Of a DNA stretch of 64,000 bases, positions 1-59,260 are shown one piece after another. Numbering within the stretch: the stretch's first letter is position 1; every line of letters begins with the position of its first letter. The DNA is from Alphaproteobacteria bacterium. GTDB lineage: Bacteria > Pseudomonadota > Alphaproteobacteria > Bin95. The notes beneath the pieces were generated by a model that searched no databases, was not told the DNA's origin, and worked only from the letters and a program-made list of their open reading frames with translations. The stretch spans positions 1,344,001 through 1,408,000 of the forward strand of contig CBDBGH010000003.1 of assembly GCA_965205265.1 (NCBI GenBank), written 5' to 3'. The position numbers and the translations under genes were made by a program.

Positions 1-1335
1 TTTGTCGGGCAGGCGGGCACCACGGCTGTCGGGCTCGGCATGCCGAACCTGCCGCTGGCGCCGGTCGCCGGCCATGTCGATACGCAGACCGACAACGAGC
101 TCCGCTCAAACGTGCTGGGCGAGACGCTGGACGCCGTGATCGCGAACCTGACGGAGCCGCCGGACGAGGCCGTCGAGACGGTCGAGCCCGAGCCGCGCGA
201 CATCGTGTTCGAGGGCAGCTTCGAGGAGGTGAACCGCCTCTTCTACGAGAACCGCTGGTCCGACGGGCTGCCGGTGGTGCCGCCTTCGGTGGAGAAGATC
301 GAGCGCTTCCTCGCCTTCTGCGACCGGCCCGCGGACGCCGTGCTCGGCAAGCTCCCGCCCGACAACCGGGCGGCGACGGTCTGGAATGTGGCCGCGAACG
401 GCGTCATGGCCGGCTGCCGGCCGGAATACATGCCGGTGCTGGTGGCGCTCGCCGAGGCGATGGCGAACCCGGAATACGGCGTCGAGCATTCCGGCAACAC
501 GCCGGGCGCGGAGACGCTGATTACCGTCAACGGCCCCATCGCGAAGGCGCTCGGCTTCAACTATGAGCAGGGTGCGCTCAGGGACGGCTTCCAGGCCAAC
601 ACCTCGGTCGGGCGCTTCTGGCGGCTCTATCTGCGCAATGTCGCAGGCTTCATCCCGCACGAAACCGACAAGGGCACTTTCGGCAACACCTGGCGGGTGG
701 CGCTGGCCGAGAACGAGGATGTGCTGAAGCGGATCGGCTGGCCCAACACGGCGACCGATATGGGCCTGCCGGAAGGCGCCAACGCCGTCACCGTCTCCCG
801 CTATACCGGCGGCGACGTGGTGACCTCCGTTTTCGGGCGCCGGGCGGAGGAGATGCTGCCCTATCTGGCGGACGCGCTGGTCAAGCAGTCCGGCTGGGAG
901 CTTGTGTTCACCGTCGGCATGGCGACCGGCACCTACCGCCCGCTGCTGGTGCTCTCGCCGATCCTGGCTGAGACCATCGCCGGTTCGGGGCTCTCCAAGG
1001 ACGACATGCGGGACTGGCTCTACGAGCATGCGCGGATGCCGGCCCGGAAGTTCGAGCGATATATCTCGGGCTGGACCAACCTGGTGCCGGGCCACCGCTC
1101 GCTGACGGAACTCGTGGCGCTCGGCAAGGCGCCCGAGGTCTTCGCCGAGTCCGACGATCCGGACCGCATGGTGCCCATCGTCTGCGAGCCGGAGGATTTC
1201 GGCATTGCGGTCGCGGGCGACCCGCTGCGCACCAACGCCTATGTGTTCGCGCATAACGGCATACTCGGCTTCCCGGTGACCCGCGAGATCGAGCTGCCGG
1301 CGGACTGGCAGGCCCAGCTGGCGGCAGCTGGTTAA
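1..1335 (+). CDS. 5'-truncated UGSC-type domain + 'WSDGLP' domain fusion protein (function unknown)
   Basis: Frame is open from base 1 (FVGQAGTTAVGLGMPNLPLAPVAGH..., which resembles the C-terminal half of the UGSC domain at 58.8 kb, FFALGKAEAECLGMAGLPIAVVPHP). It is followed by RWSDGLPVVPPS, AANGVMAGCRPEY and ANTSVGR, shared with three other ORFs in the window. The start lies outside the window. Confidence 0.8.
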   Translation, partial: FVGQAGTTAVGLGMPNLPLAPVAGHVDTQTDNELRSNVLGETLDAVIANLTEPPDEAVETVEPEPRDIVFEGSFEEVNRLFYENRWSDGLPVVPPSVEKIERFLAFCDRPADAVLGKLPPDNRAATVWNVAANGVMAGCRPEYMPVLVALAEAMANPEYGVEHSGNTPGAETLITVNGPIAKALGFNYEQGALRDGFQANTSVGRFWRLYLRNVAGFIPHETDKGTFGNTWRVALAENEDVLKRIGWPNTATDMGLPEGANAVTVSRYTGGDVVTSVFGRRAEEMLPYLADALVKQSGWELVFTVGMATGTYRPLLVLSPILAETIAGSGLSKDDMRDWLYEHARMPARKFERYISGWTNLVPGHRSLTELVALGKAPEVFAESDDPDRMVPIVCEPEDFGIAVAGDPLRTNAYVFAHNGILGFPVTREIELPADWQAQLAAAG

Positions 1336-1356
1336 CTGAGGAAAGAAGGCAGGCCG

Positions 1357-1641
1357 ATGCAGGTCTCTGTCACCGAGGCAAGGAAGCATCTGGCTGCACT
1401 TATGCGCCGTGCAGAGGCAGGCGAAGAGGTTGTGCTGACCCGCAATGGCCGGGCGACCGTCAGGCTGGTGCCCGTGCCGCAGCAGCCCAAAGCCGAGATG
1501 CGTCGCGCTGCGATTGCCGATGCACAGGCCGCCGTTCGCAAGCGACTTGCCGAACTCGGTGAGGCAGGTGACCGGACGGCTGGCCCGAGCGCGGCCCGCA
1601 GCCAGGACTTCCTTTATGACGACGATGGTTTGCCGGCTTGA
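1357..1641 (+). CDS. Phd/YefM-family antitoxin (orphan)
   Basis: N-terminus MQVSVTEARKHLAALMRRAEAGEEVVLTRNGRATVRLVP is a typical Phd/YefM signature. Confidence 0.85.
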   Translation: MQVSVTEARKHLAALMRRAEAGEEVVLTRNGRATVRLVPVPQQPKAEMRRAAIADAQAAVRKRLAELGEAGDRTAGPSAARSQDFLYDDDGLPA

Positions 1642-1673
1642 AGCTGACGCTGTCGCCACTGGCGAGCGTGTGA
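1638..1673 (+). pseudogene. possible 5' remnant of a RelE/ParE-like toxin truncated by a MITE
   Basis: TTG overlaps the antitoxin TGA (TTGA). It reads MKLTLSPLA and then runs into the MITE terminal repeat, which supplies the stop. Confidence 0.35.
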
Positions 1674-1935
1674 AGAAATCGGATTTGTCGGGTTTTACGC
1701 CGCCCGTCCGGCGGGAAACAGCCCTTGGTGTGCCCCAAACCGTCACCCCGGACTTGATCCGGGGTCCATCCCTGACCGGTTGCGCCAGCCGCAGCCGTTC
1801 GAGAGGAAACCGAACCGTCTGCGCCCGCCGAGAGAACCGGAGATGGACCCCGGATCAAGTCCGGGGTGACGATGTTTATCTGTCCTCGTCCCCTTTCGAT
1901 ACGGCCGACTGCCGCTCCGATTTCTTCACACGCTC
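1664..1935. mobile_element. MITE-like element with 20-bp perfect terminal inverted repeats
   Basis: GAGCGTGTGAAGAAATCGGA at 1664-1683 and its exact reverse complement at 1916-1935; no transposase; no clear target duplication. Confidence 0.8.
1741..1871. repeat. CGTC-tagged REP inverted dimer nested in the MITE
   Basis: CGTCACCCCGGACTTGATCCGGGGTCCATC (1741-1770) and its perfect reverse complement (1842-1871). Confidence 0.9.
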
Positions 1936-1953
1936 AAGCGCGGAAACGACGAC

Positions 1954-3099
1954 ATGAGCAGAGCAACACTCTGGTTGCTGATTCCGGCGGGCCAGCGGGC
2001 GAACGGGGCGTGGATCGACGACACGCTCGTCCGCCGGGCGCGCGAGAAGGGCATGACCGCCCGGCTGACGGAGGCCGGGCGCTTTCCCCGGCAGCGTGTG
2101 GAGGTGCTGCGGGACGGGGACGCCGGCGCGCTCTACTACCGGCGGGGCTGGACCGACGGCCTGCCCATCCTGCCGCCGACGCTCGACCGGGTGGACGCCA
2201 TGCTGCGCGGGTCGGCGCGCGGGCGGAACGAGAGCCTGGGCGAACTCGACCCGCTGAAAGGCGTGGCGACGGTTGAGCGCGTGGCCGCCAACGCCGTCAT
2301 GGCGGGCTGCGCGCCGGAGCATTTCCCGGTCGTCCTTGCCGCCGTCGAGGCGCTGGCCGACCCCGCCTTCAACCTGCGCGGCGTGCAGACCACGGACGAG
2401 AATGTGGCGCCGCTCATCCTGCTGAGCGGGTCTGTGGTCGAGCGGCTGGAGGTGAATGCCGGCTTCGGCATGCTGGGGCCGGGCTGGCAGGCCAATGCCG
2501 CCATCGGCCGGGCGGTCCGGTTCGTCATGAACAATATCGGCGGCGGCTGGCCGGAGGCCGTTTCCTTCGCCGGGCTCGGCCAGCCGGGCCGCTACACCCT
2601 TGTGCTGGCGGAGAACGCCGCCGCCAACCCCTGGGAGCCGCTGCACGAGGAGCTGGGCGGCGAGAACGTGCTGGCGCTCATGCGGGCGGAGACCGCCATC
2701 AATGTGACCGGCGGGCTGGACGACCTTGCGAGCGTAATGGGTTCCGCCGCCTCGACCTTCAACATGGCCTGGGAAGGCAAGGCGGCGGTTGTGATAGCGC
2801 CCTTCGTGGCGCAGGAACTGGCGGGGCAGGGCTGGTCCAAGGCCGATGTGAAAGAAGCGCTCTGGCGGCGGGGGCGGATGCCGCGCGCCGAATTCGAGAA
2901 GCTCTGGCTGCGCACCCGCCTCATCGGCGGCGAACGCTGGCCGGAATGGACGGAGGGAGAAGCCGCCGTGCCGGCCGTCGCGCGGCCGGAGGACATCGTG
3001 CTGATCGTGGCCGGCGGCGACATCCCGATCCCGCAATGCGCCTGGTTCCCGTCCTGGGGCTTCCCGCCCTGCTGCATCGTGAAGGAGATCGCCGCGTGA
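1954..3099 (+). CDS. 'WTDGLP' domain protein, paralogue 2 (function unknown)
   Basis: GWTDGLPILPPT, VAANAVMAGCAPEHFP, ANAAIGRAVR, DIVLIVAGG motifs; Cys-rich C-terminus (PQCAW...PPCC). Confidence 0.85.
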   Translation: MSRATLWLLIPAGQRANGAWIDDTLVRRAREKGMTARLTEAGRFPRQRVEVLRDGDAGALYYRRGWTDGLPILPPTLDRVDAMLRGSARGRNESLGELDPLKGVATVERVAANAVMAGCAPEHFPVVLAAVEALADPAFNLRGVQTTDENVAPLILLSGSVVERLEVNAGFGMLGPGWQANAAIGRAVRFVMNNIGGGWPEAVSFAGLGQPGRYTLVLAENAAANPWEPLHEELGGENVLALMRAETAINVTGGLDDLASVMGSAASTFNMAWEGKAAVVIAPFVAQELAGQGWSKADVKEALWRRGRMPRAEFEKLWLRTRLIGGERWPEWTEGEAAVPAVARPEDIVLIVAGGDIPIPQCAWFPSWGFPPCCIVKEIAA

Positions 3100-3917
3100 G
3101 GCCGCTCGACCTTGCAGTCGTCGGCGGCGGCGTGGCGGGGCTTGCGGCTGCCGACGAAGCGGTTTCTCTGGGGCTTGAGGTGGCGCTGTTCGAGTCGGGG
3201 CTCTATGGCGGCCTCGTCGCCAATGTGGGCGCGCTCGACGGTTGGCCCGCCATCGTTAGCGGCTCCGAGCTGGCCTATGGCTGGAAGGAGCGGCTGACGG
3301 AAACCGGCGTTCGCTTCCACGAGGAGCATGTCGAGGCCGTCCGCGTTCAGGGCCGCCGCCGGATCGTCGAGACGGACCGCAGCCGCTATCGGGCGAAAGC
3401 GGTCGTCGCGGCGACCGGCGCGAGGCTCCGCCGTCTGGACGTGCCGGGCGAGGAGGAACTGACCGGGCGCGGCGTGTCGCAATGCGCCTTCTGCGACGCC
3501 GGCTTCTTCAGGGATGCCGACGTGGCCGTGGTGGGCGGCGGCGATGCGGCCTTGCAGGAAGCGCTGCACCTCGCCGGCTATGTGCGCTCTGTGTCGATGA
3601 TCGTGCGCGGCGGGCGGCTGAGGGCCCGGCCGGGCTACGGGGCGCGGGCGGCGGCCGACCCGAAGTTCCGCTTCCACTGGAACAGCGAGGTCGCCTCCAT
3701 CGACGGGGAAAGCGGCGTCGAGGGCGTGACGCTCGCAGACGGGCGGCGGCTGGAGGTCTCGGGCGTGTTCGTCTTCATCGGCCTTGAGCCGGTAACGGCG
3801 CTGGCGGGGGAGGGCGCTTTCGCCGCCGGCGCCGTTCGCACGGGCGGTTCGCTCGCCGAGGCCGTGGCCGACGGGCAGCGCGCCGCTAGGGAGGCCGCCG
3901 CGGCGCTCAGGCGATGA
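3096..3917 (+). CDS. thioredoxin reductase (TrxB)-like FAD/NAD(P)-dependent oxidoreductase
   Basis: GTG start overlaps the upstream TGA; VVGGGVAG FAD motif, ATGA, GRGVSQCAFCD (CxxC), VAVVGGGDAA NADPH motif, GVFVFIG; C-terminal region is shortened. Confidence 0.85.
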   Translation: MRPLDLAVVGGGVAGLAAADEAVSLGLEVALFESGLYGGLVANVGALDGWPAIVSGSELAYGWKERLTETGVRFHEEHVEAVRVQGRRRIVETDRSRYRAKAVVAATGARLRRLDVPGEEELTGRGVSQCAFCDAGFFRDADVAVVGGGDAALQEALHLAGYVRSVSMIVRGGRLRARPGYGARAAADPKFRFHWNSEVASIDGESGVEGVTLADGRRLEVSGVFVFIGLEPVTALAGEGAFAAGAVRTGGSLAEAVADGQRAAREAAAALRR

Positions 3918-4842: not shown

Positions 4843-5005
4843 CGTCGGCATCCTTCCTGTTGCAGGGCCTCGCCACAAATAGCCGTTCGGGAAGCGGTTC
4901 GGCAGGGAAAATTGCGCTGGCTGCCGGTCGAGCGCCCCTTCGCATTGAAGCATGCGTAATGATGTGTATATTGCATACACATACGAGGAGACAGGAGCAG
5001 GCGCG

Positions 5006-6644: not shown

Positions 6645-6648
6645 GCGC

Positions 6649-8529
6649 ATGGCGGAAGAGCAGACCGAACTGGAGGCCCCGCAGCGGCTGGCCGGAGGCG
6701 TCGAGGCGATCCGCCGGCATCTGCGCGTCATGCCGCTCACGCCCGGCGTCTATCGGATGATCGACCGGCGCGGGCAGGTGCTCTATGTCGGCAAGGCCCG
6801 CTCTTTGCGCCGGCGGGTCACGGCCTATGTCCGGCCCGACAACCAGCCCTACCGCATCCGCCGCATGATCTCCGAGACCGCCTCCATGGAGGTGGTGACG
6901 ACCCACACCGAGGTCGAGGCGCTGCTGCTCGAAATCAACCTCATCAAGGAGTTGCGCCCCCGCTACAACGTGCTGCTGCGGGACGACAAGAGCTTCCCCC
7001 ACATCCTGATCGCGCGCGACCACGAATGGCCGCGCATCCTCAAGCATCGCGGCGCGCGCTCGCGGACGGGGGAGTATTTCGGCCCCTTCGCCTCCGCCGG
7101 CGCGGTCAACCGGACCCTGACCGCCCTCCAGCGCGCCTTCCTGCTGAGGTCCTGTTCCGACGCCGTGTTCCGCAGCCGCACCCGGCCCTGCCTGCTCTAC
7201 CAGATCAAGCGCTGCTCGGCGCCCTGCGTCGGCCGGGTGTCGCCGGAGGATTACGAGGCGGCCATAGGGGAAGCGCGCGCCTTCCTCTCCGGCCAGAGCC
7301 AGTCCGTCCAGCAGGCGTTTTCCGAGCGCATGCAGGCCGCGAGCGACGCGCTGGAATTCGAGACCGCCGCGCTCTACCGGGACCGCATCCGGGCGTTGAC
7401 GCGGGTGCAGGCGCATCAGGACATCAATGTGGACGGCGTCGGCGATGCCGACGTGATCGCCGCCCATTTCGAAGGCGGGCAGGCCTGCATCCAGGTGTTC
7501 TTCTTCCGCGCCGGGCAGAATTTCGGCAACCGCGCCTATTTCCCGGCCGGCAGCCGGCACTACGACCCGGCGCAGTTCATCGCGGCGTTCGTCGGGCAGT
7601 TCTACTCCAACAAGCCGCCGCCGCGCCGCATCCTGCTGAGCGCGCGCCCGGCCGAAGACGCGCTGCTGGCCGAGGCGCTGAGCCTCAAGGCCGGCCGCCG
7701 CGTCGATCTGCGCTGGCCGATGCGCGGCGCCAAGCGCAAGCTGGTCGAGCATGCGCTCGCCAACGCCCGCGACGCGCTCTCCCGCCGCTCGGCGGAGAAT
7801 GCGACCCAGCGCGAGCTGCTCGGGCGCGTGGCGGAGCTCTTCGACCTCGAAGGCCCGCCGGAGCGGATCGAGGTCTATGACAACAGCCATATCCAGGGCC
7901 GGAACGCCGTCGGCGGCATGATCGTCGCCGGGCCGGAAGGCCTGGTCCGCAACGCCTACCGCAAGTTCAACATCAAGGGCGACGCCGCGCCCGGCGACGA
8001 TTTCGCCATGATGCGCGAGGTGCTCCGCCGGCGGTTCTCGCGCGCGCTCAAGGAGGACCCGGAGCGCGCCGGCGGCTCATGGCCGGACCTCGTGCTGATC
8101 GACGGCGGCGCGGGCCAGCTTTCCTCAGCGCAGGGCGTGCTTGCAGAGCTCGGCATCGAGGACATGCCGCTCGCCGCCATCGCCAAGGGGCCGGAGCGCA
8201 ATGCCGGGCGCGAACGCTTCTTCACGACGGAGAAGCCGCCCTTCTCGCTGCCGGAGCACGACCCCGCGCTGCATTTCCTGCAACGCCTGCGCGACGAGGC
8301 GCACCGCTTCGCCATCGGCACCCACAGGGCGCGCCGCGCGAAGGCCGTGCGGCAATCGCCGCTGGACGAGGTGGCCGGCATCGGCGCGGCCCGCAAGCGC
8401 GCCCTGCTGCACCATTTCGGCTCCGCCCGCGGCGTGGAGGGCGCCGGCTTCGAGGACCTGCTGGCTGTCCCCGGCATCTCGAAAACGGTCGCAAAGCGCC
8501 TCTACGACCATTTCCACCCGGAGGGGTAG
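6649..8529 (+). CDS. uvrC: excinuclease ABC subunit C
   Basis: GIY-YIG (PGVYRM...LYVGKA), [38 protein letters not shown]-terminal HhH. Confidence 0.97.
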
Positions 8530-8539
8530 GGCTCCAGCC

Positions 8540-9271
8540 CTACCAGAGCGCCCGCGTAAGCTCGCTCAGCGACACCTTCTGCCGGCCGTCCGCGTCGAAA
8601 TTCTTCGGGGCGAACCATTGGGCGTGGGCTTTGCGGACGGCGGGCCATTCTTCGTCCGTCAGGGAGAACCAGGCGGTGTCGCGGCTCCGGCCCTTCACGA
8701 TCAGGTGGTTGAGGAAGAGGCCCTCATAGCGGAAGCCGAGGCGGAGCGCGGCCGAGCGCGAGCCGGCGTTCAGCGCGTTGCACTTCCATTCCAGCCGCCG
8801 GTAGCCGCGCGTCTCCAGCACATGGTGCATCATCATCGAGAGCACCTCGGTCGCGCGGATGTCGCGCTGCCAGGCGCGGCCGAACCAGATATTGCCGATC
8901 TCGCCCACCCCGGCAGCCTGCTTGATCTCCATGAAGCTGCCCATGCCGCCGGGAACGCCCGTCGCCCGGTCCCGATAGACCATGAAGAGCGGGTCCTTCG
9001 AGGCGGCGCAGCCGATGAGCCATTCATGCACGGCCGCCGCGCCGGCGAACGGGCCGTAGCCGAGATAGTCCCAGATGCGGTCCGGCTCCTCGCCCTCGAT
9101 CCCGGCAGTGTAGAGGCCGGCGGCGTCCCGGTCCGGGTCCACCGGCTCCACGACCGTTCTCCGGCCGGTGAGGACGCTGCCTTCGAAGCCTTCCCAATGG
9201 CGCTGCGCCACCTCTGCGTTGCCGATGGGCCGCCGCCCGGCTGCGCTCGCCCGTTCCCTCTCGCTTGCCAT
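8540..9271 (-). CDS. RimJ/RimL-type GNAT acetyltransferase
   Basis: GYRRLEWKCNALNAGSRSAALRLGFRYEG...KGRSRDTAWFS. Confidence 0.9.
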   Translation of the reverse strand: MASERERASAAGRRPIGNAEVAQRHWEGFEGSVLTGRRTVVEPVDPDRDAAGLYTAGIEGEEPDRIWDYLGYGPFAGAAAVHEWLIGCAASKDPLFMVYRDRATGVPGGMGSFMEIKQAAGVGEIGNIWFGRAWQRDIRATEVLSMMMHHVLETRGYRRLEWKCNALNAGSRSAALRLGFRYEGLFLNHLIVKGRSRDTAWFSLTDEEWPAVRKAHAQWFAPKNFDADGRQKVSLSELTRALW

Positions 9272-9361
9272 GTCCCCGTCTCTGTTCCGGATGGGCCAAG
9301 GATAGCGGGGAAGGCGGTTTGCCGCTAAGGTCTGCGGCGACGATTTCGGGGGAGAAACGCG

Positions 9362-10399
9362 ATGCGGCTCGGCATCACGCTCGGCTACAGCGGCGGCGAC
9401 ATGGCGGACAAGGTGGCGCTCGTGCAGGAGGCCGAGCGCCTCGGTTACGAGATGTGCTGGACCTCGGAGGCCTGGGGCACGGACGCGATCTCGCCCGCCG
9501 CCTGGCTGCTCGCGCAGACCTCACGCATCAAGGTCGGCACGACCATCATCCAGATGCAGTCACGCTCGCCGGCGCTGGCGGCCATGACCTCCATGACCCT
9601 GCAGGAGATGTCCGGTGGGCGCTTCGTGCTCGGCATCGGCCCGTCGGGCCCGCAGGTGATCGAGGGCTGGCACGGCGTGCCGTTCGGCAAGCCGCTGGCG
9701 CGCACCCGCGAATATATCTCGATCATCCGCCAGATCCTGCGCCGCGAGGGCGTGCTGGAGCATCACGGCGAGCATTACGACATTCCCTATCACGGGCCGG
9801 GTGCCACCGGCCTCGGCAAGCCGCTCAAGACCATCCTGCATCCCGACCCGGACCTGACGATCTACACCGCCGCGATCACGCCGGCGGGCGTGCGCACCGC
9901 GGCGGAGGTTGCGGACGGAGTGATCCCGGTCTTCATGGACCCTGAGAGCGATGTCTTCGCGGAGCCGATTGCGGAAGGCATCGCCAAGGCGGGCAACGGC
10001 AAGACGGCCGCCGATTTCGAGGTCGTGCCCTTCGTGCCCGTCCGCGTCGGCGACGACCTTGAGGCCTGCCGCGCCCCGGTGCGCGAGCATCTCGCCTTCT
10101 ATGTCGGCGGCATGGGCGCGCGCGACAAGAACTTCTACAACGACTATGTCGGGCGCATGGGCTATGAGGACGCGGCGCGCAAGGTGCAGGATCTGTTCCT
10201 CTCCGGCCAGCGCAAGGAAGCGAGCGCCGCGCTGCCGGACGAGCTGGTGGACAGCGTGGCGCTGCTCGGCGACAAGGCCCGCATCCGCGACCGGCTGGGT
10301 GCGTGGAAGGACGCCATCGCCGCCGGCCGCGTCGCCGGCATCGCGCTGACCGGCGCCACGCCCGAGGCGGTCCGCACGGTGGCCGAGGCGGCGGCCTGA
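9362..10399 (+). CDS. LLM-class (probable F420-dependent) oxidoreductase
   Basis: WTSEAWGTDA, SGGRFVLGIGPSGPQVIEGWHG, AFYVGGMGARDKNFYND. Confidence 0.9.
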   Translation: MRLGITLGYSGGDMADKVALVQEAERLGYEMCWTSEAWGTDAISPAAWLLAQTSRIKVGTTIIQMQSRSPALAAMTSMTLQEMSGGRFVLGIGPSGPQVIEGWHGVPFGKPLARTREYISIIRQILRREGVLEHHGEHYDIPYHGPGATGLGKPLKTILHPDPDLTIYTAAITPAGVRTAAEVADGVIPVFMDPESDVFAEPIAEGIAKAGNGKTAADFEVVPFVPVRVGDDLEACRAPVREHLAFYVGGMGARDKNFYNDYVGRMGYEDAARKVQDLFLSGQRKEASAALPDELVDSVALLGDKARIRDRLGAWKDAIAAGRVAGIALTGATPEAVRTVAEAAA

Positions 10400-10432
10400 G
10401 CGGGCAGGGCGCACGACGCGGGGAGATAGCGA

Positions 10433-10837
10433 ATGGCCCGTCGGCATATCGAAGTGGACAAGCCCTGGCACAGGAGCATTCCCTTTGCGCAGGGCGTCGT
10501 GGCGACGGGCTCGCTGCTGTTCACCTCCGGCATCACGGCGCGCACGCCCGACGGCAAGATCGACGGCGTGGGCGACATGCGCCGGCAAATGGAGGTCTGC
10601 TTCGCCAACATGGCGGCGGTGCTGGAGAATGCCGGTATCGGTTGGGGGGACATGGTGAAAATGACCATGTACACCACCGACATCGAAGGCTTCAGCGAAC
10701 ATGCGGATGTCTGGCGGCGGCACTTCACGGGACGTCCGGGCAGCACGCTCGTGGAAGTCAGCCGGCTCGCCCTGCCGGAGATGCTCGTCGAGATCGAGGC
10801 GGTGTTCGACATGGGCGAAGCCGGCGACGCCGCGTGA
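10433..10837 (+). CDS. RidA/YjgF family protein
   Basis: LLFTSG, DMVKMTMYTTD, PGSTLVEVSRLALPEMLVEIEAV. Confidence 0.85.
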   Translation: MARRHIEVDKPWHRSIPFAQGVVATGSLLFTSGITARTPDGKIDGVGDMRRQMEVCFANMAAVLENAGIGWGDMVKMTMYTTDIEGFSEHADVWRRHFTGRPGSTLVEVSRLALPEMLVEIEAVFDMGEAGDAA

Positions 10838-10847
10838 GGAGGCTTCG

Positions 10848-12152
10848 ATGCCGGACGGTTCGCTGACATCCTTCATGGCTGCAAAGGCAGGGGATATCCT
10901 CTCCGCCTGCACAAGCTGCGGCGCCTGCGTCGAGGCCTGTCCCGTCGTGCCCCATGCGGGGATTTCGGATGTGGCGCCGGAGGCGGTTGCCGGCGGTGTG
11001 CTGCAGGTGTTGCGGGACGGCGGGCGGCTGGAGGGGCCGGCGGACGCCTGGGTGCATCAGTGCAATGGCTGCGGCGCGTGCATTCCCGCCTGCCCGGAGG
11101 GCGTCAATCCGCGCAACATGGTGATGCTCGCCGCTGCCAAATCCTCGGAAACGCACAGCGACACGCCGCAGCTCTTCCGCAAGATGGCCCGCGCCATTCG
11201 CCTGATGGCGGCGATGCAGCTTGCCCCGGCGGACCTGGCGCGGCTGCTGCAGCCGCCGAAGCCGCGGTCCGTGCCAGTGGTTTTCTATGTCGGCTGCAAC
11301 GCCGTGCGCACGCCGCACCTGCTGTTCAACGCGATGTATGTGCTCGACGCCATCGAGGTCGATTACGAGGTGCTGGGCGGGCCGGCCGCCTGCTGCGGCA
11401 TCATCCACACCAAGTGGGAAGGCGAGACGGAGGCCGGCGGGCGCGTGACCGACGGAACGCTCAAGCGTTTCGGCGACTTCCAGCCGGAGCGGGTGCTGAG
11501 CTGGTGTCCCTCCTGCCAGCTCCATATCGGGGAGACGGTGGAAGGCTATGGCGAGGCGGCCTTCGCCTTCGAGCATGTGACCGGCTATCTGGTCGAGAAC
11601 GAGGAGCGGCTGCGCGGCCTCTATACGACGGAAGTGCCGATGCGGGTGCTGCTGCACGCGCATGAGGGCATGGCGGAGCTGGGCCGGAATGTCGCCCGGC
11701 TGCTGGGCGATGTGCCGGGGCTGGAAATCGCCGGCATCGCCTGGGAGTCCGGTTATACCTGCGGCGGCTCCGGCCAGGACCGCTCGCCCGGCCTCAAAGC
11801 GGAGCGCCGCAGGGCGACCTATGCGATGGCCGAGGAGACGGGCGCGGAGGCGCTGGTCTCGCTCTATCACGGCTGCCACGCGCAACTCTCCGCCGGAGCC
11901 GAGACGCAGGGCCCGCCGGTCGTCAATTTCACGGATTTCCTGGTGCGCGCGCTGGGCGGCGAGCCGCGCGAGGACCTGCTGTCCGGCTGGCGGATGGCCG
12001 GCGACTGGCAGGCGCTCGCGGCGCGCAGCATGCCGATGTTGGAGCGGAACGCGGTTTCGGTCGATCCGGACCGGTTCGCGTCCTTGCTCCCGGACATGCT
12101 GGCGAGCAAGGAGTTCACAGGCGGCCTCGACGAGCTTGTCCGGCCGCGGTGA
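10848..12152 (+). CDS. Fe-S oxidoreductase (two 4Fe-4S motifs + CCG domains, GlpC/HdrD-like)
   Basis: CTSCGACVEACP, CNGCGACIPACP, FYVGC, CCG, CPSC, TCGG, YHGC. Confidence 0.85.
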   Translation: MPDGSLTSFMAAKAGDILSACTSCGACVEACPVVPHAGISDVAPEAVAGGVLQVLRDGGRLEGPADAWVHQCNGCGACIPACPEGVNPRNMVMLAAAKSSETHSDTPQLFRKMARAIRLMAAMQLAPADLARLLQPPKPRSVPVVFYVGCNAVRTPHLLFNAMYVLDAIEVDYEVLGGPAACCGIIHTKWEGETEAGGRVTDGTLKRFGDFQPERVLSWCPSCQLHIGETVEGYGEAAFAFEHVTGYLVENEERLRGLYTTEVPMRVLLHAHEGMAELGRNVARLLGDVPGLEIAGIAWESGYTCGGSGQDRSPGLKAERRRATYAMAEETGAEALVSLYHGCHAQLSAGAETQGPPVVNFTDFLVRALGGEPREDLLSGWRMAGDWQALAARSMPMLERNAVSVDPDRFASLLPDMLASKEFTGGLDELVRPR

Positions 12153-21674: not shown

Positions 21675-22076
21675 TCACCGGATGGACAACCGTTGTTCGA
21701 CCCATCGAACGACCGTTTCGGCGATTTCTGTAGCTTGCGAGTATTCTTCGGTGGTTACCGGGCGCACGACACCGGGGTAACGTGTGGCGGAGGCGTAGAG
21801 AGTCAGTTCGGCAGCAGCGCGTATCTCTTCCGGTACCTCTTCTCCTTCCTCTTCCAAAAGGAACAGCAGACGCCCCAGATCGTGCACGTAGGGGAAGTCG
21901 ATGCGTCGTTCGATCAACAATGCCTTGACCGCCTTCTCCGCGGCCTGTTGAGCGAGAAAGCACAGGTCCTCCAGATAGGCTTCGGGAACCCGATTGCGGG
22001 CCAAGACCAGACTGCTTCTCGCCCGGTTCAGCCATTCGCGGGGATCGTCCGGAGAGAAACGCTCAGGAGGCGTCAT
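21675..22076 (-). CDS. HEPN-domain protein (toxin of MNT-HEPN pair)
   Basis: EWLNRARSSL, CFLAQQAAEKAVKA, PYVHDL, YASATRYP. Confidence 0.88.
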   Translation of the reverse strand: MTPPERFSPDDPREWLNRARSSLVLARNRVPEAYLEDLCFLAQQAAEKAVKALLIERRIDFPYVHDLGRLLFLLEEEGEEVPEEIRAAAELTLYASATRYPGVVRPVTTEEYSQATEIAETVVRWVEQRLSIR

Positions 22077-22392
22077 AGAGCACCTGCCCTTCCAGAAGGG
22101 CGGATTTGAAGACCAGGGCATGACTGTCCCTGAACCGTTCCAGGTCCTTCGGCGCTGCAACGACCGCGTCCACTGCGGCGCCCGCTCCGTACAAACTCCG
22201 GTATATGCGCCCCAGCAGGCCGAGAGTATCGGGATCGTCCTTGACGACCAGAATGTCCAGATCGCTGTCGGCGCCCATATCTCCTCTGGCCGCCGATCCG
22301 AAAAGAATTATCTTTTCAGGGGCGGCGGCTTCGACGATGCGTCTGACAATATCGTCGATAGTTTCCCGACTGGTTGTCTGCTGCGCATTCAT
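22063..22392 (-). CDS. minimal nucleotidyltransferase (MNT) antitoxin
   Basis: PEKIILFGSAARGDMGADSDLDILVV (GS-x10-DxD). Confidence 0.9.
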   Translation of the reverse strand: MNAQQTTSRETIDDIVRRIVEAAAPEKIILFGSAARGDMGADSDLDILVVKDDPDTLGLLGRIYRSLYGAGAAVDAVVAAPKDLERFRDSHALVFKSALLEGQVLYDAS

Positions 22393-22432: not shown

Positions 22433-22957
22433 CTATCCGCTGCGGATGGCGGCGAGGATGGGCTGGATGGCGCGCTCGGCGATGTCCGTCAGCTCTTCCG
22501 GCGTGCGGTTCTGGATCGGGTGGTCCACGAACACCACGGCCGGGCGCACGCCCATGGCGTCCGCCTGCACGGCGGCGGCGTCGCGGAACTCCTCGGTCGC
22601 AATGGCGCAGCCGGGCATTCCCAGGCGGTCCAGCTCGATGATGTCATGCAAACTGCACGACGTGCACGAGCCTCAGTCCGCAAGCCCTTCGACAACGATG
22701 TCGCAGCGCTCCACGAGGTCCTGGATGACGCCGCGCGGGGCGGGCTTGGTGTGCGTCGGCTTGGCGAAGCGCATCACCTTCAGGCCCTGGGCGGCCAGCC
22801 GCTCCTCCACCGCGTCGAGGAACTCCACCGAACGCTCCTTGCCGATGGAGAGCAGGCCGATGGTGAGGCCGTCGAGGCTTGCCGGCGGCACGACGGGCTG
22901 CCGGTAGGCCGGCTCCGTCTCCGCCGTCGGGTCCCGCATCGTATAGGGTTCCGTCAT
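22433..22957 (-). CDS. UGSC-family selenoprotein (174 aa, Sec95)
   Basis: ORFs 22673-22957 and 22433-22672 are in frame across a single TGA (22675-22673): EGLAD-U-GSCTSCSLHDIIELDRLGMP. The ATG overlaps the upstream stop. Confidence 0.85.
22643..22661 (-). promoter_or_regulatory. putative bacterial SECIS hairpin
   Basis: GTCGTGCA-GTT-TGCATGAC, starting 11 nt after the TGA. Confidence 0.7.
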
Positions 22958-24402
22958 GGTCCGATCTCCTTCGTTACAGGATCGACTTCTCCGGTCATCC
23001 GCATTCCGGTCCACCCCCCTATGACCGCCGAGAACAGGCCCGCCGGTCCGCCCGCGCGCGCAATCAGGAAGGTGGGTTCGCGGAACTTGTCGATGACTTC
23101 GTGCTCCCGGCCGGGCTCCAGTCCTTCGGCGAGGCCGCCGGCGCCGCGCACGACGTCGCGTCCCGGTCGTTTCAGCGCGGTCCAGAGGGCTTCATGGATT
23201 TCATCGCGGCCCCAGCCCTCGGACTTGTAGATAAGGTAATGCTCCGGCGAGAGCACCAGCAGCGCCCCGCCGAACTCGCAGAGCTTCGGATGGTTCACAT
23301 GCCAGAGATAGTGGGCGAGCGAGGTCGTCAGCTCCTTCGCCGTGCGGCTCTTCTGGTCCACGAAGCCGCTCACCCCCTCGCCGTGGAAGAGGGTGACGGC
23401 GGACCTGCCCGGCGGGATGCCGCGCGCGACCGAGAGCGGCGTCCAGTCCGGGTCGGTTTCGTCCTCCGCGAAGCAGAAGGTGTATTTGCCGGGATTGCCG
23501 AGCGCCGCGCGGTCGATCTCGCCCGGCCGCCCGCCGCCGACATTGCGGACGATGAGCTGGAAGGCCCGGCCGATGGTGGCGTTGGCGCGGTTGCCCTGGC
23601 CGAGCGCGTTCAGGCCCCAGTTCATGCCGATGCGGCGCACGACGGGGCCGTTCACGACGATCACGGGCCCCGCGAAATGCGTCGTACAGAGCAGGCCGTG
23701 CATGGAGAACGCCGGGTCCAGTGCCGCTTCGACCGCTGCCAGCACGGTCGGGAAATATTCGGGCCGGCAGCCGGCCATGACGGCGTTGATGGCCGCCTTC
23801 TCCACCGTGCAGGGGATGAGGTTGGGCGGGATCGCCCCGATAACCTCGCCGGCCGCGCGCGTGGTGCCGGCCAGCATCCGCGCCACGCGCAGGTCGGTCG
23901 GCGGCACGATCGGCAGCCCGTCGGTCCAGCCCCGGTCGAAGGCCGCTTCCATCGGGTCGTCATGGTCCTCGACGGTGATCCGCCGCGCCTTGAGCGGGAT
24001 ATCGCCGAAGCGCACCGCCAGCCTCTCCGGCATCCCGAACTCGACCGACAGCGACCCGCATCCGGGCCGGTTCTCGGGCAGGTCCTCGCCGAGACCGTCG
24101 TTGCCGGTAAGGGCCCGCCATTCGGCCTTGTTCCATCCGATCGCGCGCGCGGCTTCCCTGCCGCCGCTGAAGCGGATCAAGGTCGGCACGGTCTCGATGT
24201 CAAGCCGGTATGAAAGCTCGAGATCGCCGTCGTGACGGGGCGCGGCGCCCTCGGGAAAGAAGGGATCGTCCTGCGTAACCGCAACGGCCCCTTTTGCCGC
24301 CAGTTCCGCGAGGACCGGCGCAACCAGGACGCAGGTCGGACAGTCCCGCTTGACCACCGCCAGCAGGCCGTCGGAAGGAAGGGCATCGCGCCAACCGGTC
24401 AC
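22954..24402 (-). CDS. thioredoxin-like (CPTC) domain + 'WTDGLP' domain fusion, paralogue 3
   Basis: VVKRDCPTC, LDIETVPTLIRF (cis-Pro loop), PGCGS linker, then GWTDGLPIVPPT, AINAVMAGCRPEYFP, ANATIGRA. Confidence 0.85.
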   Translation of the reverse strand: MTGWRDALPSDGLLAVVKRDCPTCVLVAPVLAELAAKGAVAVTQDDPFFPEGAAPRHDGDLELSYRLDIETVPTLIRFSGGREAARAIGWNKAEWRALTGNDGLGEDLPENRPGCGSLSVEFGMPERLAVRFGDIPLKARRITVEDHDDPMEAAFDRGWTDGLPIVPPTDLRVARMLAGTTRAAGEVIGAIPPNLIPCTVEKAAINAVMAGCRPEYFPTVLAAVEAALDPAFSMHGLLCTTHFAGPVIVVNGPVVRRIGMNWGLNALGQGNRANATIGRAFQLIVRNVGGGRPGEIDRAALGNPGKYTFCFAEDETDPDWTPLSVARGIPPGRSAVTLFHGEGVSGFVDQKSRTAKELTTSLAHYLWHVNHPKLCEFGGALLVLSPEHYLIYKSEGWGRDEIHEALWTALKRPGRDVVRGAGGLAEGLEPGREHEVIDKFREPTFLIARAGGPAGLFSAVIGGWTGMRMTGEVDPVTKEIGP

Positions 24403-40131: not shown

Positions 40132-40207
40132 GGGCGCGTAGCTCAGTTGGTAGAGCATCTGACTTTTAATCAGACGGTCCCAGGTTCGAATCCTGGCGCG
40201 CTCACCA
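40132..40207 (+). tRNA. tRNA-Lys(TTT)
   Basis: 76-nt cloverleaf GGGCGCGTAGCTCAG...CTGACTTTTAATCAG...GGTTCGAATCC...CACCA. Confidence 0.97.
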
Positions 40208-45087: not shown

Positions 45088-45161
45088 TGGCTGGGCGACC
45101 TGGATTCGAACCAGGGCTACTGGGGCCAGAACCCAGCGTTCTGCCGCTAAACTATCGCCCA
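45088..45161 (-). tRNA. tRNA-Gln(CTG)
   Basis: Reverse complement TGGGCGATAGTTTAGCGGCAGAAC-GCTGGGTTCTGGCCCCAG-...GGTTCGAATCC...CAGCCA, 74 nt. Confidence 0.93.
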
Positions 45162-55185: not shown

Positions 55186-55197
55186 GGCTGGAACGGG

Positions 55198-55770: not shown

Positions 55771-56263
55771 TGTAGATATCCAGGGCGACATCCACCCCGT
55801 CGTTCAGGAAAATGACCGTCTTGGCGGCAATCCGCCACTCGCCGTCCTCAAGGCGGAGCCGGTAGCGGTAGCGCCCGCCATGCACGCGCGCGCCCTTGAG
55901 CGTGGCATATTGATGCACAGTCCAGGACGCGACGGCCTCGACCTCGCCTTCCCCGGCGGAGAGGATCAGCACATTGCCGACCACATGGCAGGAGCGCGGC
56001 ATCGGGAGCGAGGCGTAGCTGTCCCGCGTGCCGATGCGGAACACTCGGTCATCAAGGCCTTCCTTGCCCCGGATGTAGATCAGCGCGAGTTCGGTTTCGG
56101 GGTCTCGGGCAAGCGTTTCCTCGCCGGTCCAAGCGGGCACCCAGAAGGTCACATCTTCGGTGAACAGCGCCAGCCAGTCCTCGAAGCGTCGTTCGTCCAG
56201 AAGCCAGGCATCGAGATGGATAACGCGCTCGACGGCAAGCTGCAGGCCCGGATCGATCTTCAC
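55763..56263 (-). CDS. aromatic-ring-hydroxylating dioxygenase beta subunit
   Basis: GTG at 56263; LLDERRFEDWLALF, FWVPAW, GLDDRVFRI, PRSCHVVGNV, DIYNV. Confidence 0.9.
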   Translation of the reverse strand: MKIDPGLQLAVERVIHLDAWLLDERRFEDWLALFTEDVTFWVPAWTGEETLARDPETELALIYIRGKEGLDDRVFRIGTRDSYASLPMPRSCHVVGNVLILSAGEGEVEAVASWTVHQYATLKGARVHGGRYRYRLRLEDGEWRIAAKTVIFLNDGVDVALDIYNV

Positions 56264-57582
56264 GCGGCAACCCCATCGGCGCGCGCCATAAGGCGACGCC
56301 ATTGACGGTATTGCCCGTGATAGAGCGTTTCGTGGTCCCAGCGCGGGCTGGTGGAAACGGGCCGGATGCCGAGGTCGGTCGCAGCATCGTCGCCGCCTTC
56401 CTGCATGGCGGCAATGCCGCGCGAGAGGTCGTTCCAGCGGTCGAGGCGGCCTTCGCATCCCGCTTGCGTATCCTCCAGCGCAGCCGAGTCGTCCGGCGTG
56501 GCGAGCCCGCTCATCAGGAAGAAATCGCGGAACTTCGACAGCCTCGCCGTTCGCGCGGCGCGGCTCTCCCCCTTCGGCGCGATGCAATAGACCGTAACTT
56601 CCGTGCGGCTCGGTGAAATCGGCCGGATGACCCGGATCTGCGTCGACGACTGGTCCATCAGGAATACGTTCGGGAAGAGCAGCAGGTTGCGCCCCCGCGC
56701 GCACATCCAGGTCCATTTGCTCTCGCCGACAAGCGGCAGGATGCGGGCGCGCGCTTCCCAGAGCGGCGCCGACTCCGGCATGCCGCGCTCGGTCCAGATC
56801 AGGTTGTGGCCGTTGCCGAGGTCGTAGCAGCCGTTGCGGGTCTTGCCCATGAAACGGGTATTGTCGGTGCGCCCGGTCCCGGTTGCTTCGGACTTCAAGT
56901 CGCGGCGCTGGATGGTGGTGACGAAGTTCCGGTGGACGGTCGAGACATGGTAGCCGTCCACGCCGTTTTCGGTCTGGAGCTTCCAATTGCCGTCCACGAC
57001 ATAGCTCGCCTGGCCCGGAACGATTTCCATGCCGTCCGGCGACTGGTCGGCGACGAGATCGATGACGGGAAGAGCCTCGCCCAGATGCTCGGCGAGCGGC
57101 GGCGCATCGGGATTGAGCGAGCCGAAGACGAAGCCCTTGTAGCTTTCCACCAGCGGCACTGTCTTGAGGCCGAAATCGGCGCGCGATGCGCCGGGCGGCA
57201 ATGCCGAACTGCGCTCGTCCTTGATTTTCGTGCAGGCGCCGAAGGTGTCGTAGCACCAGCCGTGATAGCGGCACACGAACGTGGTCGCCTTGCCCTGCCG
57301 GGTGGGCGTCAGACGGGCGCCGCGATGGGCGCAGGCGTTCAGCATGGCGCCGATGGTGCCGTCGGCCCGCCGGTTGACGATCACCGGCTGCCGGCCCATC
57401 CGGACGGCGAGGTAGTCGCCGGACTCCGGGATCTGGCTCTCATGCGCGAGATAGATCCAGTTGCCCTCGAAGATCGTCTCGATCTCGGCGGCGAAAACCT
57501 CGGGGTCCGTATAGATGGCCCGGTCCACCCTGAAGACGCCCTCGCCGGCGCGGTCGTCCACGAGCGATGCAAAGGCGCTCAT
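56260..57582 (-). CDS. Rieske dioxygenase alpha subunit (benzoate/anthranilate 1,2-dioxygenase-like)
   Basis: NACAHRG...CRYHGW Rieske motif; NWKLQTENGVDGYHVSTVH; SGLATPDD. Confidence 0.92.
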   Translation of the reverse strand: MSAFASLVDDRAGEGVFRVDRAIYTDPEVFAAEIETIFEGNWIYLAHESQIPESGDYLAVRMGRQPVIVNRRADGTIGAMLNACAHRGARLTPTRQGKATTFVCRYHGWCYDTFGACTKIKDERSSALPPGASRADFGLKTVPLVESYKGFVFGSLNPDAPPLAEHLGEALPVIDLVADQSPDGMEIVPGQASYVVDGNWKLQTENGVDGYHVSTVHRNFVTTIQRRDLKSEATGTGRTDNTRFMGKTRNGCYDLGNGHNLIWTERGMPESAPLWEARARILPLVGESKWTWMCARGRNLLLFPNVFLMDQSSTQIRVIRPISPSRTEVTVYCIAPKGESRAARTARLSKFRDFFLMSGLATPDDSAALEDTQAGCEGRLDRWNDLSRGIAAMQEGGDDAATDLGIRPVSTSPRWDHETLYHGQYRQWRRLMARADGVAA

Positions 57583-57613
57583 CGCATTGCGCCTCCCCTG
57601 CGGAGGTTGTTGA

Positions 57614-59260
57614 CTAATCCCGGATCGCCTCGGTGACGGAGAGGGTGCTGCCGAAGGACGGGATGACGCAGGAGTGGCGTCCCGCCCCGCCGGCGACCAT
57701 GACCATGAGCTGGTCCCGCTCGCTCACGATGCGCACGCCGTCCCTGCCGTCCGGGCCGACGAAACGCTCCGGCACCTGTTGGCCGTAAAGCGCCATCTGC
57801 GCCTTGCCGATATGCCAGCGCGGGATGATCGCGCGCTCGATGATGAAGCGCTCGACATCCTCTTTCGACCAGCCCTCGCGCGCGATCACCTCGGCATGTT
57901 CCGGGCCGATCACCACGAGATATTCGCCGTGGAAATAGGAGTTGTTGCAGCCGGGCGTGGCCATGGTGCCGCAGATCGTCAGCAGAACGTCTTCGGCCGT
58001 TTCGCTGTAGTGGTCGTTGACATTGTGCGGGCCCTCGACGCCGCAGAGGGTGACCGCGTTCTCCTCCGCCCCGAAGCCCCGTTCGGCATGGAAGGGCGCC
58101 CAGGGATTGGCCTCGCCATTTTCCGCGAAGCAGTAGCTGTATTTGGCGGGTGTGCCCATCGTCGCGCGGTCGAGCACGCTGGGCTGCGCGCCGCCGATAT
58201 TGGTCAGCACGAGGCGGACCGCGCGCCCGATCGCGGCATTGGCGTGGACGCCCTGGCCCATGCAATTGGTGCCCGATGCGATGTCGAGCTCGTCCGTGAT
58301 CGGCCCGTGCACGACGGTCAAGAGGCCGCAGGGATGGGTCGTGGACTGGAGCGCCTTCAGGTTCAGCCGCTCGGCGGTCATGGCCCGGGTCGCGGCGAGG
58401 ATGACCGGCATCATGGCCGGCGTCGCCCCGGCCATCACGGCATTGGCGGCAACCTTGCCGACCGTCGCGAGGCCGAGGCGCGGCTCGACCGGGCCGATTT
58501 CCTCGCCCGGGTCGCGCCCATCCAGCATGGCTTCCCAGCGGTCGGGCGTCGGCGGAACGAAGGGCAGGCCGTCGGTCCAGCCGCGCTGGTAGAAGACGCG
58601 GTTCAGTGCCTCGGGCGAGTCGGGGCCGGAAATCCGCTCCGGCGCGCCGGGCGCGTTGAAGTCGCCCTCGAACAGCGAGCGGTAGCGCATCCGGCCCCGC
58701 TTCGGCAGGGGACGGTTGCGGCATTCCTCCGCGAGCGCCGCCGCATCCGCCTCCAGCATGTGGACGATCTGGTCTATCGCCTCGTCGGCGATCTCCGAAA
58801 CGCCGGGAGGCGGCAGTTTCGCCACCGGATGCGGTACGACTGCAATCGGCAGGCCGGCCATGCCGAGGCACTCGGCCTCCGCCTTGCCGAGAGCGAAGAA
58901 CTCGTCCGTACAGGTAACGGCGACCGGAATGCCGCGCTCTTCGAGCTTGATCGCGTCATGGATACACCACGACGTGCAGGAGCCTCAGTCGCCGAAGGCG
59001 GCGGCAACGGCGTGGACGCGGTCGAGCCACTGCTGCGAGAAATTGGCGGGCTCGCTCGCGATCTTCTGGAAGAGCTCGAACTCCAGATGCGGGTAACGCG
59101 CCTTCAGCCGGTGCGACAGCTCTTCCAGGTAAAGGTCTGCATTCGCCTTGAGATTCGAGAACAGGCCAACGACCTCTACGTCTTCCAGGGACCGCCGCGG
59201 CGCCAGCGCGCCGCTATTGCGCTGGTAGATGCCGCAAGGATTGATAAGCTCCTGTGCCAT
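57614..59260 (-). CDS. UGSC selenoprotein domain + 'WTDGLP' domain fusion (548 aa, Sec92), paralogue 4
   Basis: ATG at 59260; single in-frame TGA at 58987-58985: [26 protein letters not shown]. The frame continues into ORF 57614-58861 (GWTDGLPFVPPT). Confidence 0.85.
58955..58973 (-). promoter_or_regulatory. putative bacterial SECIS hairpin
   Basis: GTCGTGG-TGTAT-CCATGAC, starting 11 nt after the TGA. Confidence 0.7.

Follow-up and report, generated by a model that had tools for sequence, protein, structure and literature searches.

The 64-kb stretch of alphaproteobacterial DNA analysed here (the window) contains a recurring set of genes and raises the question of what kind of system they encode. 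The set combines a domain of about 340 amino acids with the motif WTDGLP, called W below, and UGSC (PF24696), the domain of an abundant selenoprotein. Taken together, the evidence below suggests that UGSC and W probably form a thioredoxin-fed selenium enzyme, a distant relative of the clostridial glycine and proline reductases.

W genes and in-frame TGA codons

Four W paralogues are present in the window and eight in the whole genome, and a UGSC domain is fused or adjacent to seven of the eight. The four W domains of the window share 31-39% pairwise identity over about 290-340 aa. Their coordinates and motifs, as given in a preliminary description of this DNA, were all found again. Chance is dismissed as an explanation for the recurrence of the set, because the genome holds eight W copies and seven UGSC domains, and all seven of the latter carry a TGA at the identical aligned position.

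The first gene, w1 (1..1335, + strand), belongs to a gene for a 574-aa UGSC(Sec)-W fusion, of which the window contains the 3′ part; the gene begins 390 nt before the window does (genome position C3:1343611), and Sec102 lies outside the window. A UGSC fusion at base 1 had been guessed, and the complete gene, with the motif GCUGSC, confirms it. This fusion is followed by w2 (1954..3099, +), a 381-aa W-domain protein of a conserved subtype without the UGSC core. A divergent TrxB-like flavoprotein gene (3096..3917, +; 273 aa, with CAFC) overlaps w2 by GTGA and is translationally coupled to it. The 482-aa product of w3 (22954..24402, - strand) consists of a Trx-like domain with CPTC, a PGCGS linker and a W domain; the CPTC domain matches TIGR01068 at E=0.004, far below the cut-off. 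Coupled to w3, with an ATGA overlap, is u3 (22433..22957, -), a stand-alone 174-aa UGSC selenoprotein with Sec95 (TGA at 22675-22673). Finally, w4 (57614..59260, -) is a 548-aa UGSC(Sec92)-W fusion with DUGSCTSW and its TGA at 58987-58985. The preliminary description needs one correction: w2 itself has neither a UGSC nor a Trx domain. Against PF24696 (cut-off 25 bits) w1, u3 and w4 score 99, 134 and 140 bits; against NF041046 (cut-off 125), u3 (125.9) and w4 (127.4) are above and w1 (40.7) is below.

Contigs from sequencing runs share few words with the window (shares 0.14 and 0.06). In one RNA run, X1, a relative's contig joins w1 to w2 across 29 nt; X1 spans all 30 bins, so DNA carry-over is possible and the run is no evidence of expression.

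Among 82 aligned UGSC domains, TGA occupies the selenocysteine position in 77 and a Cys codon in 2. Covariation analysis delineated a SECIS hairpin, located at 22643..22661 (-) in u3 and at 58955..58973 (-) in w4. The hairpin is 87% paired with 30 double changes, and its covariation was reached by 0 of 500 shuffles. The genome encodes tRNA-Sec, SelB and SelD, and SelA is represented by one tblastn match. Given this covariation and the presence of the Sec machinery, the in-frame TGA is read, on sequence grounds, as selenocysteine. Among the 77 Sec genes, the residue three past the UxxC Cys is most often Trp (59 genes), with Cys in 11 genes, and this Trp/Cys position covaries with a SECIS base pair.

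Pairing of W with UGSC and its earlier description

Of 401 Pseudomonadota genomes, seven contain W, and these seven are also the ones with UGSC above its cut-off. In 69 of 80 GTDB loci UGSC lies no more than 1.2 kb from W, and each of the five tested genomes with an isolated W has a UGSC(Sec) elsewhere. These observations support the view that the two domains are obligate partners; their genomic co-occurrence had been set as a test of the proposed system, and it is found. All 36 family members examined carry 2-6 UGSC copies per genome. With 8095 clusters at 50% identity, W is a very large family, and its paralogue subtypes are stable across phyla, with up to eight divergent copies kept. Yet W proteins match no Pfam or NCBIfam model and have no clear relative in the PDB, which agrees with the proposal that W stands outside the characterised families.

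The system is not undescribed, as had been supposed. The fusion is already in print as "UGSC/Unknown_1" in Figure S1A of Zhang and Gladyshev 2008 (PMC2398784). As far as that figure extends, the Unknown_1 alignment (AVNGVMAGCRPEYMP...VEHSGNTPG) is the W domain, its rows match w1 almost letter for letter, and its GOS reads belong to the w1 subtype. The available part of the paper reports just the fusion, one conserved Cys and a likely Trx-like fold for UGSC, and proposes a thiol-redox role. Relative to that part, the obligate co-occurrence, the GrdB link, the dimer, the donor fusions and the Sec-less w2 subtype are new here. UGSC is listed as uncharacterised in the accessible text of a 2026 review (PMC13188914), and searches of the openly accessible literature listed no functional study of UGSC, PF24696, NF041046 or Unknown_1.

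Relatives and predicted structures of the two domains

Comparison of 41 UGSC members with family models may provide some clues regarding their ancestry. TIGR01917 was matched by 20, PrdB by 10, GrdF by 10, TIGR01918 by 9 and GrdH by 6, and no unrelated family was matched by more than one. The best match, to TIGR01917, has an E of 6e-6 over about 70 aa. An hhalign comparison of UGSC with five PrdB-like proteins gave a probability of 79.6% and an E of 1.5e-5 and placed U and C in register. The similarity to GrdB extends over no more than about 70 residues, and all matches are remote, falling well short of the cut-offs of the families concerned (TIGR01917/01918/04483 and NF040794/5). This evidence supports the reading of UGSC as a remote but specific homologue of GrdB/PrdB in which Sec and the next Cys are aligned. 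A resemblance to the C-terminus of GrdB had been suggested; it stands as far as UxxC is concerned but not for UxxCxxC, the third Cys of GrdB being unconserved in UGSC.

The parallels with the clostridial systems go somewhat further. The UxxC-bearing Sec domain of GrdB, GrdF, GrdH and PrdB detectably shares its ancestry with UGSC, and both Grd and Prd have a second subunit (GrdE, PrdA), as UGSC has W. The C. difficile grd operon, in the part of PMC10880999 available, holds dedicated Trx/TrxB genes, which can be likened to the donors of UGSC-W discussed below, and the active core of Prd is given as A2B2 in the accessible part of PMC11229817, in which PrdB was made in its Sec form by suppression and its Cys variant was inactive. 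There are also clear differences. None of 129 W proteins matches the GrdE/PrdA pyruvoyl family PF09338 at E up to 5, although homology beyond the reach of HMMs is possible. UGSC has about 175 aa, compared with 238-435 positions in the GrdB/PrdB family models, and the hosts of UGSC-W, unlike those of Grd/Prd, are not Stickland fermenters. Neighbour clustering revealed no recurring GrdA or GrdC genes in W loci. A search of this genome for GrdA and GrdE/PrdA gave no match, but its positive control was also silent; PF09338 searches of five other genomes, run without a positive control, gave none either.

In the fused w4 model (pLDDT 95.9, pTM 0.94), UGSC is predicted to have five alternating strand-helix units and is similar to Rossmann/flavodoxin-like domains, with a Z of about 10 and an rmsd of about 3 across 120-140 aligned residues. 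The model thus favours a Rossmann-like domain over the thioredoxin fold suggested in 2008. A PrdB-like query found no relative among solved structures; UGSC profiles, W profiles and w2 gave nothing significant against PDB sequences (best E 0.09-0.5). All clusters from ESM Atlas were either unnamed or UGSC, and no named cluster came up once those were skipped.

For W alone, Foldseek gave no match at E<=0.001, and VIA reached a Z of 5.2-5.3 at best, for 82 residues in the C-terminal subdomain, whose arrangement is chorismate-mutase/tubulin-C-terminal-like. W therefore has no clear fold match, which by itself is not evidence of a new fold. The best Foldseek matches, with E at least 0.004 and TM at most 0.26, are weak ones to class I fumarases and cyclic amide hydrolases. 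Three candidate relationships were rejected: a separate match to class I fumarases (E 5e-4, TM 0.19, rmsd 12); an FtsZ/tubulin likeness seen for either domain at an E of about 0.5 and a Z of about 5, judged to reflect a common arrangement; and a remnant of the first UGSC strand at the w2 N-terminus (hhalign probability 0.3%, E 0.24, not significant).

The w1 W domain and w2 were modelled together with an ipSAE of 0.79, compared with 0.00 for the best control; runs agree in at least 81% of contacts and partner pLDDT is at least 84. The ipSAE mark used for a dimer is reached by 116 of 157 solved pairs and 2 of 215 mismatched pairs. W thus models as a two-fold dimer with DGLP at the two-fold axis, and w2 is a probable dimer partner of w1. 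WTDGLP had been taken for a substrate-site motif; in the models it forms the dimer core instead. Tandem W-W fusions (six, and one partial) occur among the top 150 W proteins. No residue of W is both invariant and clearly catalytic, and the two commonest Cys (122/129 and 120/129) are each absent from some of the genome's own paralogues.

Electron donors and the proposed enzyme

W is fused to a full TrxB in one protein (P0166), to FeThRed_B in two (P0154, P0209) and to AhpC/Redoxin in three (P0164, P0207, P0211). Genome G206 has a trxB-UGSC-W-W operon; an apparent TrxB-UGSC fusion there was rejected, a genuine stop codon separating two genes. In the window, the TrxB-like gene adjoins W copies without a Trx domain. 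Its product scores 196 bits against TIGR01292, under the equivalog cut-off of 343.45, and is 32% identical to housekeeping TrxB. Like TrxB, it has CxxC and the motifs for binding FAD and NAD(P)H, but its C-terminal FAD region is shortened by a deletion of about 22 aa common to its relatives. In a FastTree phylogeny of 10 sequences with low internal support, it groups loosely with other UGSC-associated copies and not with housekeeping TrxB. Just 3 of 80 loci have a TrxB-like gene near W, and none of eight w2 orthologues in a sister genus has trxB or w1 within 1.5 kb. The idea of thiol donor modules survives in that such modules are repeatedly fused or adjacent, but one fixed chain from NADPH through TrxB and Trx to Sec does not; the donors look interchangeable.

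The paralogues had also been supposed to serve catabolic operons, which the neighbourhoods do not bear out. The acyl-CoA ligase, MBL hydrolase and ring dioxygenase of the window have few or no counterparts in the 80 W loci. LLM (8) and SDR (6) genes compare with about 6 expected each from this genome's density, a rough control, and no catabolic neighbour recurs with W above this background. Gene context points to no substrate.

The main reading, to which we assign a probability of about 0.55, is that UGSC-W is a thiol-fed, pyruvoyl-independent Sec reductase of small molecules. UGSC and W would be two subunits of one selenoenzyme. W would dimerize as a homodimer, heterodimer or tandem fusion via DGLP/MAG/IGR, and UGSC, a predicted five-stranded Rossmann-like relative of the GrdB/PrdB Sec domain, would dock on it as in the fused model, with Sec at a helix N-terminus within U-G-S-C. 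The reduced selenolate may attack the substrate, a small organic molecule bound by the variable loops in W, and the Cys three residues after Sec may resolve the adduct into a selenenylsulfide. This would then be reduced again by the thiol donor available at the locus in question, which may be a Trx/AhpC-like domain together with the Cys of the PGCG linker, a TrxB-like flavoprotein dedicated to the system, or a domain of the ferredoxin-thioredoxin reductase type. The stable paralogue subtypes could then serve different substrates. A wider proposal has roughly even odds: UGSC-W would be a large and so far undescribed selenoenzyme class in which a minimal GrdB-type Sec nucleophile sits on a dimeric partner, itself of unsolved fold, in place of the pyruvoyl subunit. 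TrxB, Trx or ferredoxin-thioredoxin modules would feed it interchangeably, its forms would include w1-w2 heterodimers with a Sec-less half, and it would have diversified into many reductases, each specific for its substrate, among bacteria from the sea, freshwater, groundwater and sponges. If the main reading is right, Sec-based reductive chemistry, thought typical of clostridia, would be widespread in other bacteria without the pyruvoyl cofactor. UGSC also gains a fixed partner, a likely oligomeric state, a Stickland-reductase ancestry and named electron donors, which makes an NADPH-coupled substrate screen directly feasible.

An unlikely alternative is a general antioxidant or protein-repair system, with UGSC as a peroxidase or disulfide reductase and W as a mere scaffold. 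UxxC at a helix N-terminus, the W fusions to AhpC/Redoxin-like, TrxB and FTR domains, a W motif that is structural in the dimer model and the role suggested in the available part of PMC2398784 would all fit. Such a system does not readily explain up to eight divergent paralogues in stable subtypes, the patchy distribution (7/401) or nearest HMM relatives that are small-molecule reductases and not Prx/Trx families.

Equally improbable is a non-reductive or detoxifying reaction (lyase, transferase, organometal(loid) binding) in which Sec serves as nucleophile or metal(loid) ligand and the donors just keep it reduced. Donors are optional at most loci, the resolving Cys is variable (UGSS in 5 of 77 Sec genes), and the weak matches of W to fumarases and amide hydrolases point the same way. 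Those fold matches are not significant, and independent fusions to three kinds of reductant suit an electron-consuming turnover, as do GrdB/PrdB relatives that are reductases.

Somewhat less probable again is selenium or sulfur trafficking, in which the complex reduces selenite, selenodiglutathione or polysulfide and passes selenide or sulfide on, for example to SelD. The cassette does lie inside or beside sel genes in G394/G191 and G364: a selA-selB-TrxW-UGSC-(Ndh-SelD) operon in G394 and selB directly upstream in G364. In addition, a selB-like match lies near W in locus L039, a rhodanese gene adjoins the G206 cluster, and the genome's own selAB are 13-16 kb upstream of w1. On the other hand, the 80 GTDB loci contain no selA or selD, UGSC is kept in its Cys form in a genome without selA (G212), and a single trafficking task needs no set of paralogues. 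A sole selenoprotein travelling with its machinery would presumably cluster with sel genes anyway.

Finally, it is very improbable that the TGA is a real stop in split or broken genes: most database homologues do end there, the 80 loci include one frameshifted UGSC (L064), and that of G330 looks broken, but the constant TGA position with its rare Cys counterparts, the SECIS covariation and the Sec machinery argue for readthrough as Sec.

The W domain and its UGSC partner

Motif scan and translation bear out the four copies of the WTDGLP domain (W) claimed in the preliminary description, and the feature is real: in six frames of the window, which spans G000:C3:1344001-1408000, W[TS]DGLP with A.N.VMAG was found at four places and D-TGA-GSC at two. 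By translation, w1 starts 390 nt before the window and encodes 574 aa with a fused UGSC domain (GCUGSC), a fusion that had been guessed at base 1. The w2 gene (1954-3099, 381 aa) overlaps a TrxB-like gene (3096-3917) by 4 bases, as w3 (22954-24402, a CPTC domain plus W) does the stand-alone UGSC gene u3 (22433-22957); in w4 (57614-59260) UGSC is again fused. The W domains are 31-39% identical pairwise, and w1, u3 and w4 score above the PF24696 (UGSC) cut-off. W itself has no Pfam or NCBIfam match, and in 129 W-family proteins scanned the recognised parts were attached UGSC fragments only.

Eight W copies occur in the genome, and a UGSC domain is fused or adjacent to all but one of them. Among 401 Pseudomonadota genomes, this one included, W was found in 7 and UGSC over the cut-off in the same 7. 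In 80 GTDB loci, a sample biased towards w4, UGSC lies at most 1.2 kb from W in 69. Of the remaining 11, four are truncated where the contig starts, one sits on a contig of 4 kb, and six are Poribacteria-type stand-alone W genes; five of these six genomes were checked, and all five carry UGSC(Sec) elsewhere. Two to six UGSC copies occur in 36/36 genomes of the bacterium's own family. U and W belong together, and W is an obligate partner. A search with a W profile reached 8095 clusters (50% identity), of which 2512 had E<1e-30.

The components are already known: a named selenoprotein family, and a partner that a single supplement from 2008 mentions (PMC2398784). There, Zhang and Gladyshev report a 'UGSC/Unknown_1' fusion whose Unknown_1 alignment is W (GOS reads of w1 subtype), suggest a Trx-like fold for UGSC and note one conserved Cys. 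In the portions available, PMC1976440 and PMC5029168 only count UGSC, and PMC13188914 (2026) places it among the uncharacterised. The literature searched yielded no functional study of UGSC, nor the combined picture of an obligate partner, a dimer core, pyruvoyl-less GrdB ancestry and interchangeable thiol donors.

Some minor features may be recorded. The Poribacteria-type W proteins (L024, L028, L029, L036, L051, L075) are shortened to about 310 aa. The w2-type proteins P0219 and P0258 have lipoprotein or TAT-like leaders, which suggests exported Sec-less members. The stretch between w1 and w2 (window 1357-1641 and 1664-1935) contains a Phd/YefM antitoxin gene on its own and a nested palindrome with perfect arms of 20 nt and 30 nt; this insert varies among relatives, and in several w1 and w2 are directly adjacent. 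Directly after u3 are two short minus-strand genes (21675-22392), a candidate nucleotidyltransferase/HEPN toxin-antitoxin pair.

Selenocysteine and the relation to protein B

The in-frame TGA of UGSC is selenocysteine. Among 82 UGSC domains in the 80 loci, TGA is found in 77, Cys in 2 and neither in 2, and one domain is frameshifted. In 62 sequences from these loci and the window, a hairpin of 7 pairs lies 15-33 nt from the TGA; its pairing reaches 87%, with 30 double changes, a score favoured by deriving the structure from the same sequences; 0/500 shuffles were as high, and slid controls reached at most 54%. The genome encodes tRNA-Sec, SelB and SelD. In five other genomes, selA was found in three TGA carriers and is missing from G212, which carries Cys; G330, whose UGSC looks broken, has none over the cut-off.

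Of 41 UGSC proteins scanned with loose thresholds, some matched the protein-B profiles TIGR01917 (20, best 6e-6), GrdF (10), PrdB (10), TIGR01918 (9) and GrdH (6); unrelated families matched once at most. Against five PrdB-like proteins, including L007, a separate selenoprotein of the same genome, hhalign gave 79.6% (E 1.5e-5) in an alignment of 69 columns that keeps the U and C positions lined up. These matches make UGSC a distant relative of the Sec domain in protein B, outside the family itself. The proposed likeness to GrdB thus holds as distant homology, not as membership, and its third Cys is not conserved: the sixth residue after Sec is Trp in 59/77 and Cys in 11/77. The Trp/Cys change coincides with a G-C to C-G switch of the hairpin's closing pair, partly via a synonymous Val codon (GTC with TGG 27 times, GTG with TGC 8 times); therefore the supposed third-Cys residue is RNA-constrained. 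Glycine and D-proline reductases use a pyruvoyl subunit, whereas none of the 129 W proteins matched that family (PF09338). According to PMC11229817, the Sec of Prd attacks the substrate alpha-carbon at a pyruvoyl site, and the enzyme is active as an A2B2 unit.

The L007 protein (L007:745-1956, G000:C3 about 1193230-1194440) has VUPNC and a C-terminal extension; no PrdA was found in the genome, and 7 of the 401 genomes, not counting this one, have relatives of the Cys type. The selB gene, preceded by a selA-like gene, lies 13-16 kb upstream of w1 (L001:82-1971 and upstream); near it, two transposase-like genes appear to break an ABC solute-binding gene (L001 about 7670-10890). Two UGSC-W fusions have lost both Sec and Cys (L038:9399-11096, L049:1140-2810). 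Each is part of a tandem array that also has intact copies, and each might serve as the inactive half of a hetero-oligomer.

Predicted structure and a proposed w1-w2 pair

The AlphaFold2 model of w4 (150 rows) places the U and W domains confidently relative to each other, because pLDDT is 95.9 and pTM 0.94. The U domain is modelled as alpha/beta/alpha with five strands, Sec92 starting helix 93-108, and fold searches matched it to domains of a generic Rossmann/flavodoxin-like kind (Z up to 10.2; rmsd 2.8 over 122 residues). W alone (w2, pLDDT 93.4) has no clear relative among solved structures.

A dimer of the w1 W domain with w2 was modelled at ipSAE 0.79 (0.79, 0.80 and 0.75 in the single runs, against 0.00 for the highest of three controls), with contact agreement of at least 81% and partner pLDDT of at least 84. 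The mark of this test is reached by 116/157 solved pairs and 2/215 mismatched pairs, and close cousins can pass it, so hetero- and homodimer are not told apart. In the closest contacts, the DGLP, MAG and IGR motifs of the two chains meet each other, which in the model makes the W signature the core of a two-fold dimer. Loops that vary more (w2 246-269 and 353-366) also take part in the interface.

Genomic data lend support to a w1-w2 pair. First, w1 is upstream of w2 in 13/15 same-genus loci, and also in G444, from another family, where orthologues of w1, w2, w3 and u3 form one cluster. Second, 12 w1/w2 match pairs, paired by eye, lie on equally sized contigs, two with consecutive locus tags, and tandem W-W fusions exist. 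Against the pair, w1 is within 1.5 kb of w2 orthologues of the sister genus in 0/8.

Candidate electron donors, neighbours and proposed activity

The preliminary description proposed one NADPH-TrxB-Trx-Sec chain. Among the best 150 W proteins, W is fused to a full TrxB (P0166), ferredoxin-thioredoxin reductase beta (P0154, P0209), AhpC/Redoxin-like domains (P0164, P0207, P0211) or a CxxC domain of ~75 aa (e.g. ACAECL; P0143, P0169, P0201, P0208, P0264) that Pfam hardly recognises (a weak NifU match in one of the five). Nine Trx-W fusions examined have a linker Cys (PGCG/FGCA) in 8 and CxxC in 6. TrxB-like genes are near W in 3/80 loci, where their density in this genome would predict about 0.3; the control is rough and the numbers are small. 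The donor is therefore a modular part and not a single fixed chain. In the window, the TrxB-like protein retains CAFC and shares 32% identity with housekeeping TrxB, and like its relatives it carries a deletion; its gene follows w2 in 15/15 same-genus loci, and G206 has the order trxB-UGSC-W-W. The C. difficile grd operon carries its own TrxA/TrxB (PMC10880999).

Our preferred reading of UGSC-W, at a probability of roughly 55%, is a Sec reductase that is fed by thiols and acts on small molecules. A general antioxidant function seems unlikely, and non-reductive or metal(loid) chemistry equally so. Selenium or sulfur trafficking is slightly less probable still; in favour of selenium handling, the cassette in G394 (L109:4360-12248) lies in selA-selB-TrxW-UGSC-(Ndh-SelD), the last a fusion. 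In G364 (L110:5006-10698), a Trx-W/UGSC cassette is inside or beside selA-selB genes.

The substrate of the favoured reductase was not found from the neighbourhoods of the 80 loci. Recurrent neighbours are TctC, SDR, ABC, enoyl-CoA hydratase-like, LLM, amidase, CoA-transferase and MmgE/PrpD genes. That the paralogues serve catabolic operons found no support: LLM and SDR genes are no denser near W than in this genome, the acyl-CoA ligase and MBL genes adjoining w3 recur in 0/80 loci, and the dioxygenase adjoining w4 in 2/80. Divergent from w4 are two similar tandem SDR genes (59301-60845), and in the close relative L008 an LLM gene sits between w4 and ring dioxygenase genes. ARAGORN places tRNA-Lys at window 40132-40207 and tRNA-Gln at 45088-45161.
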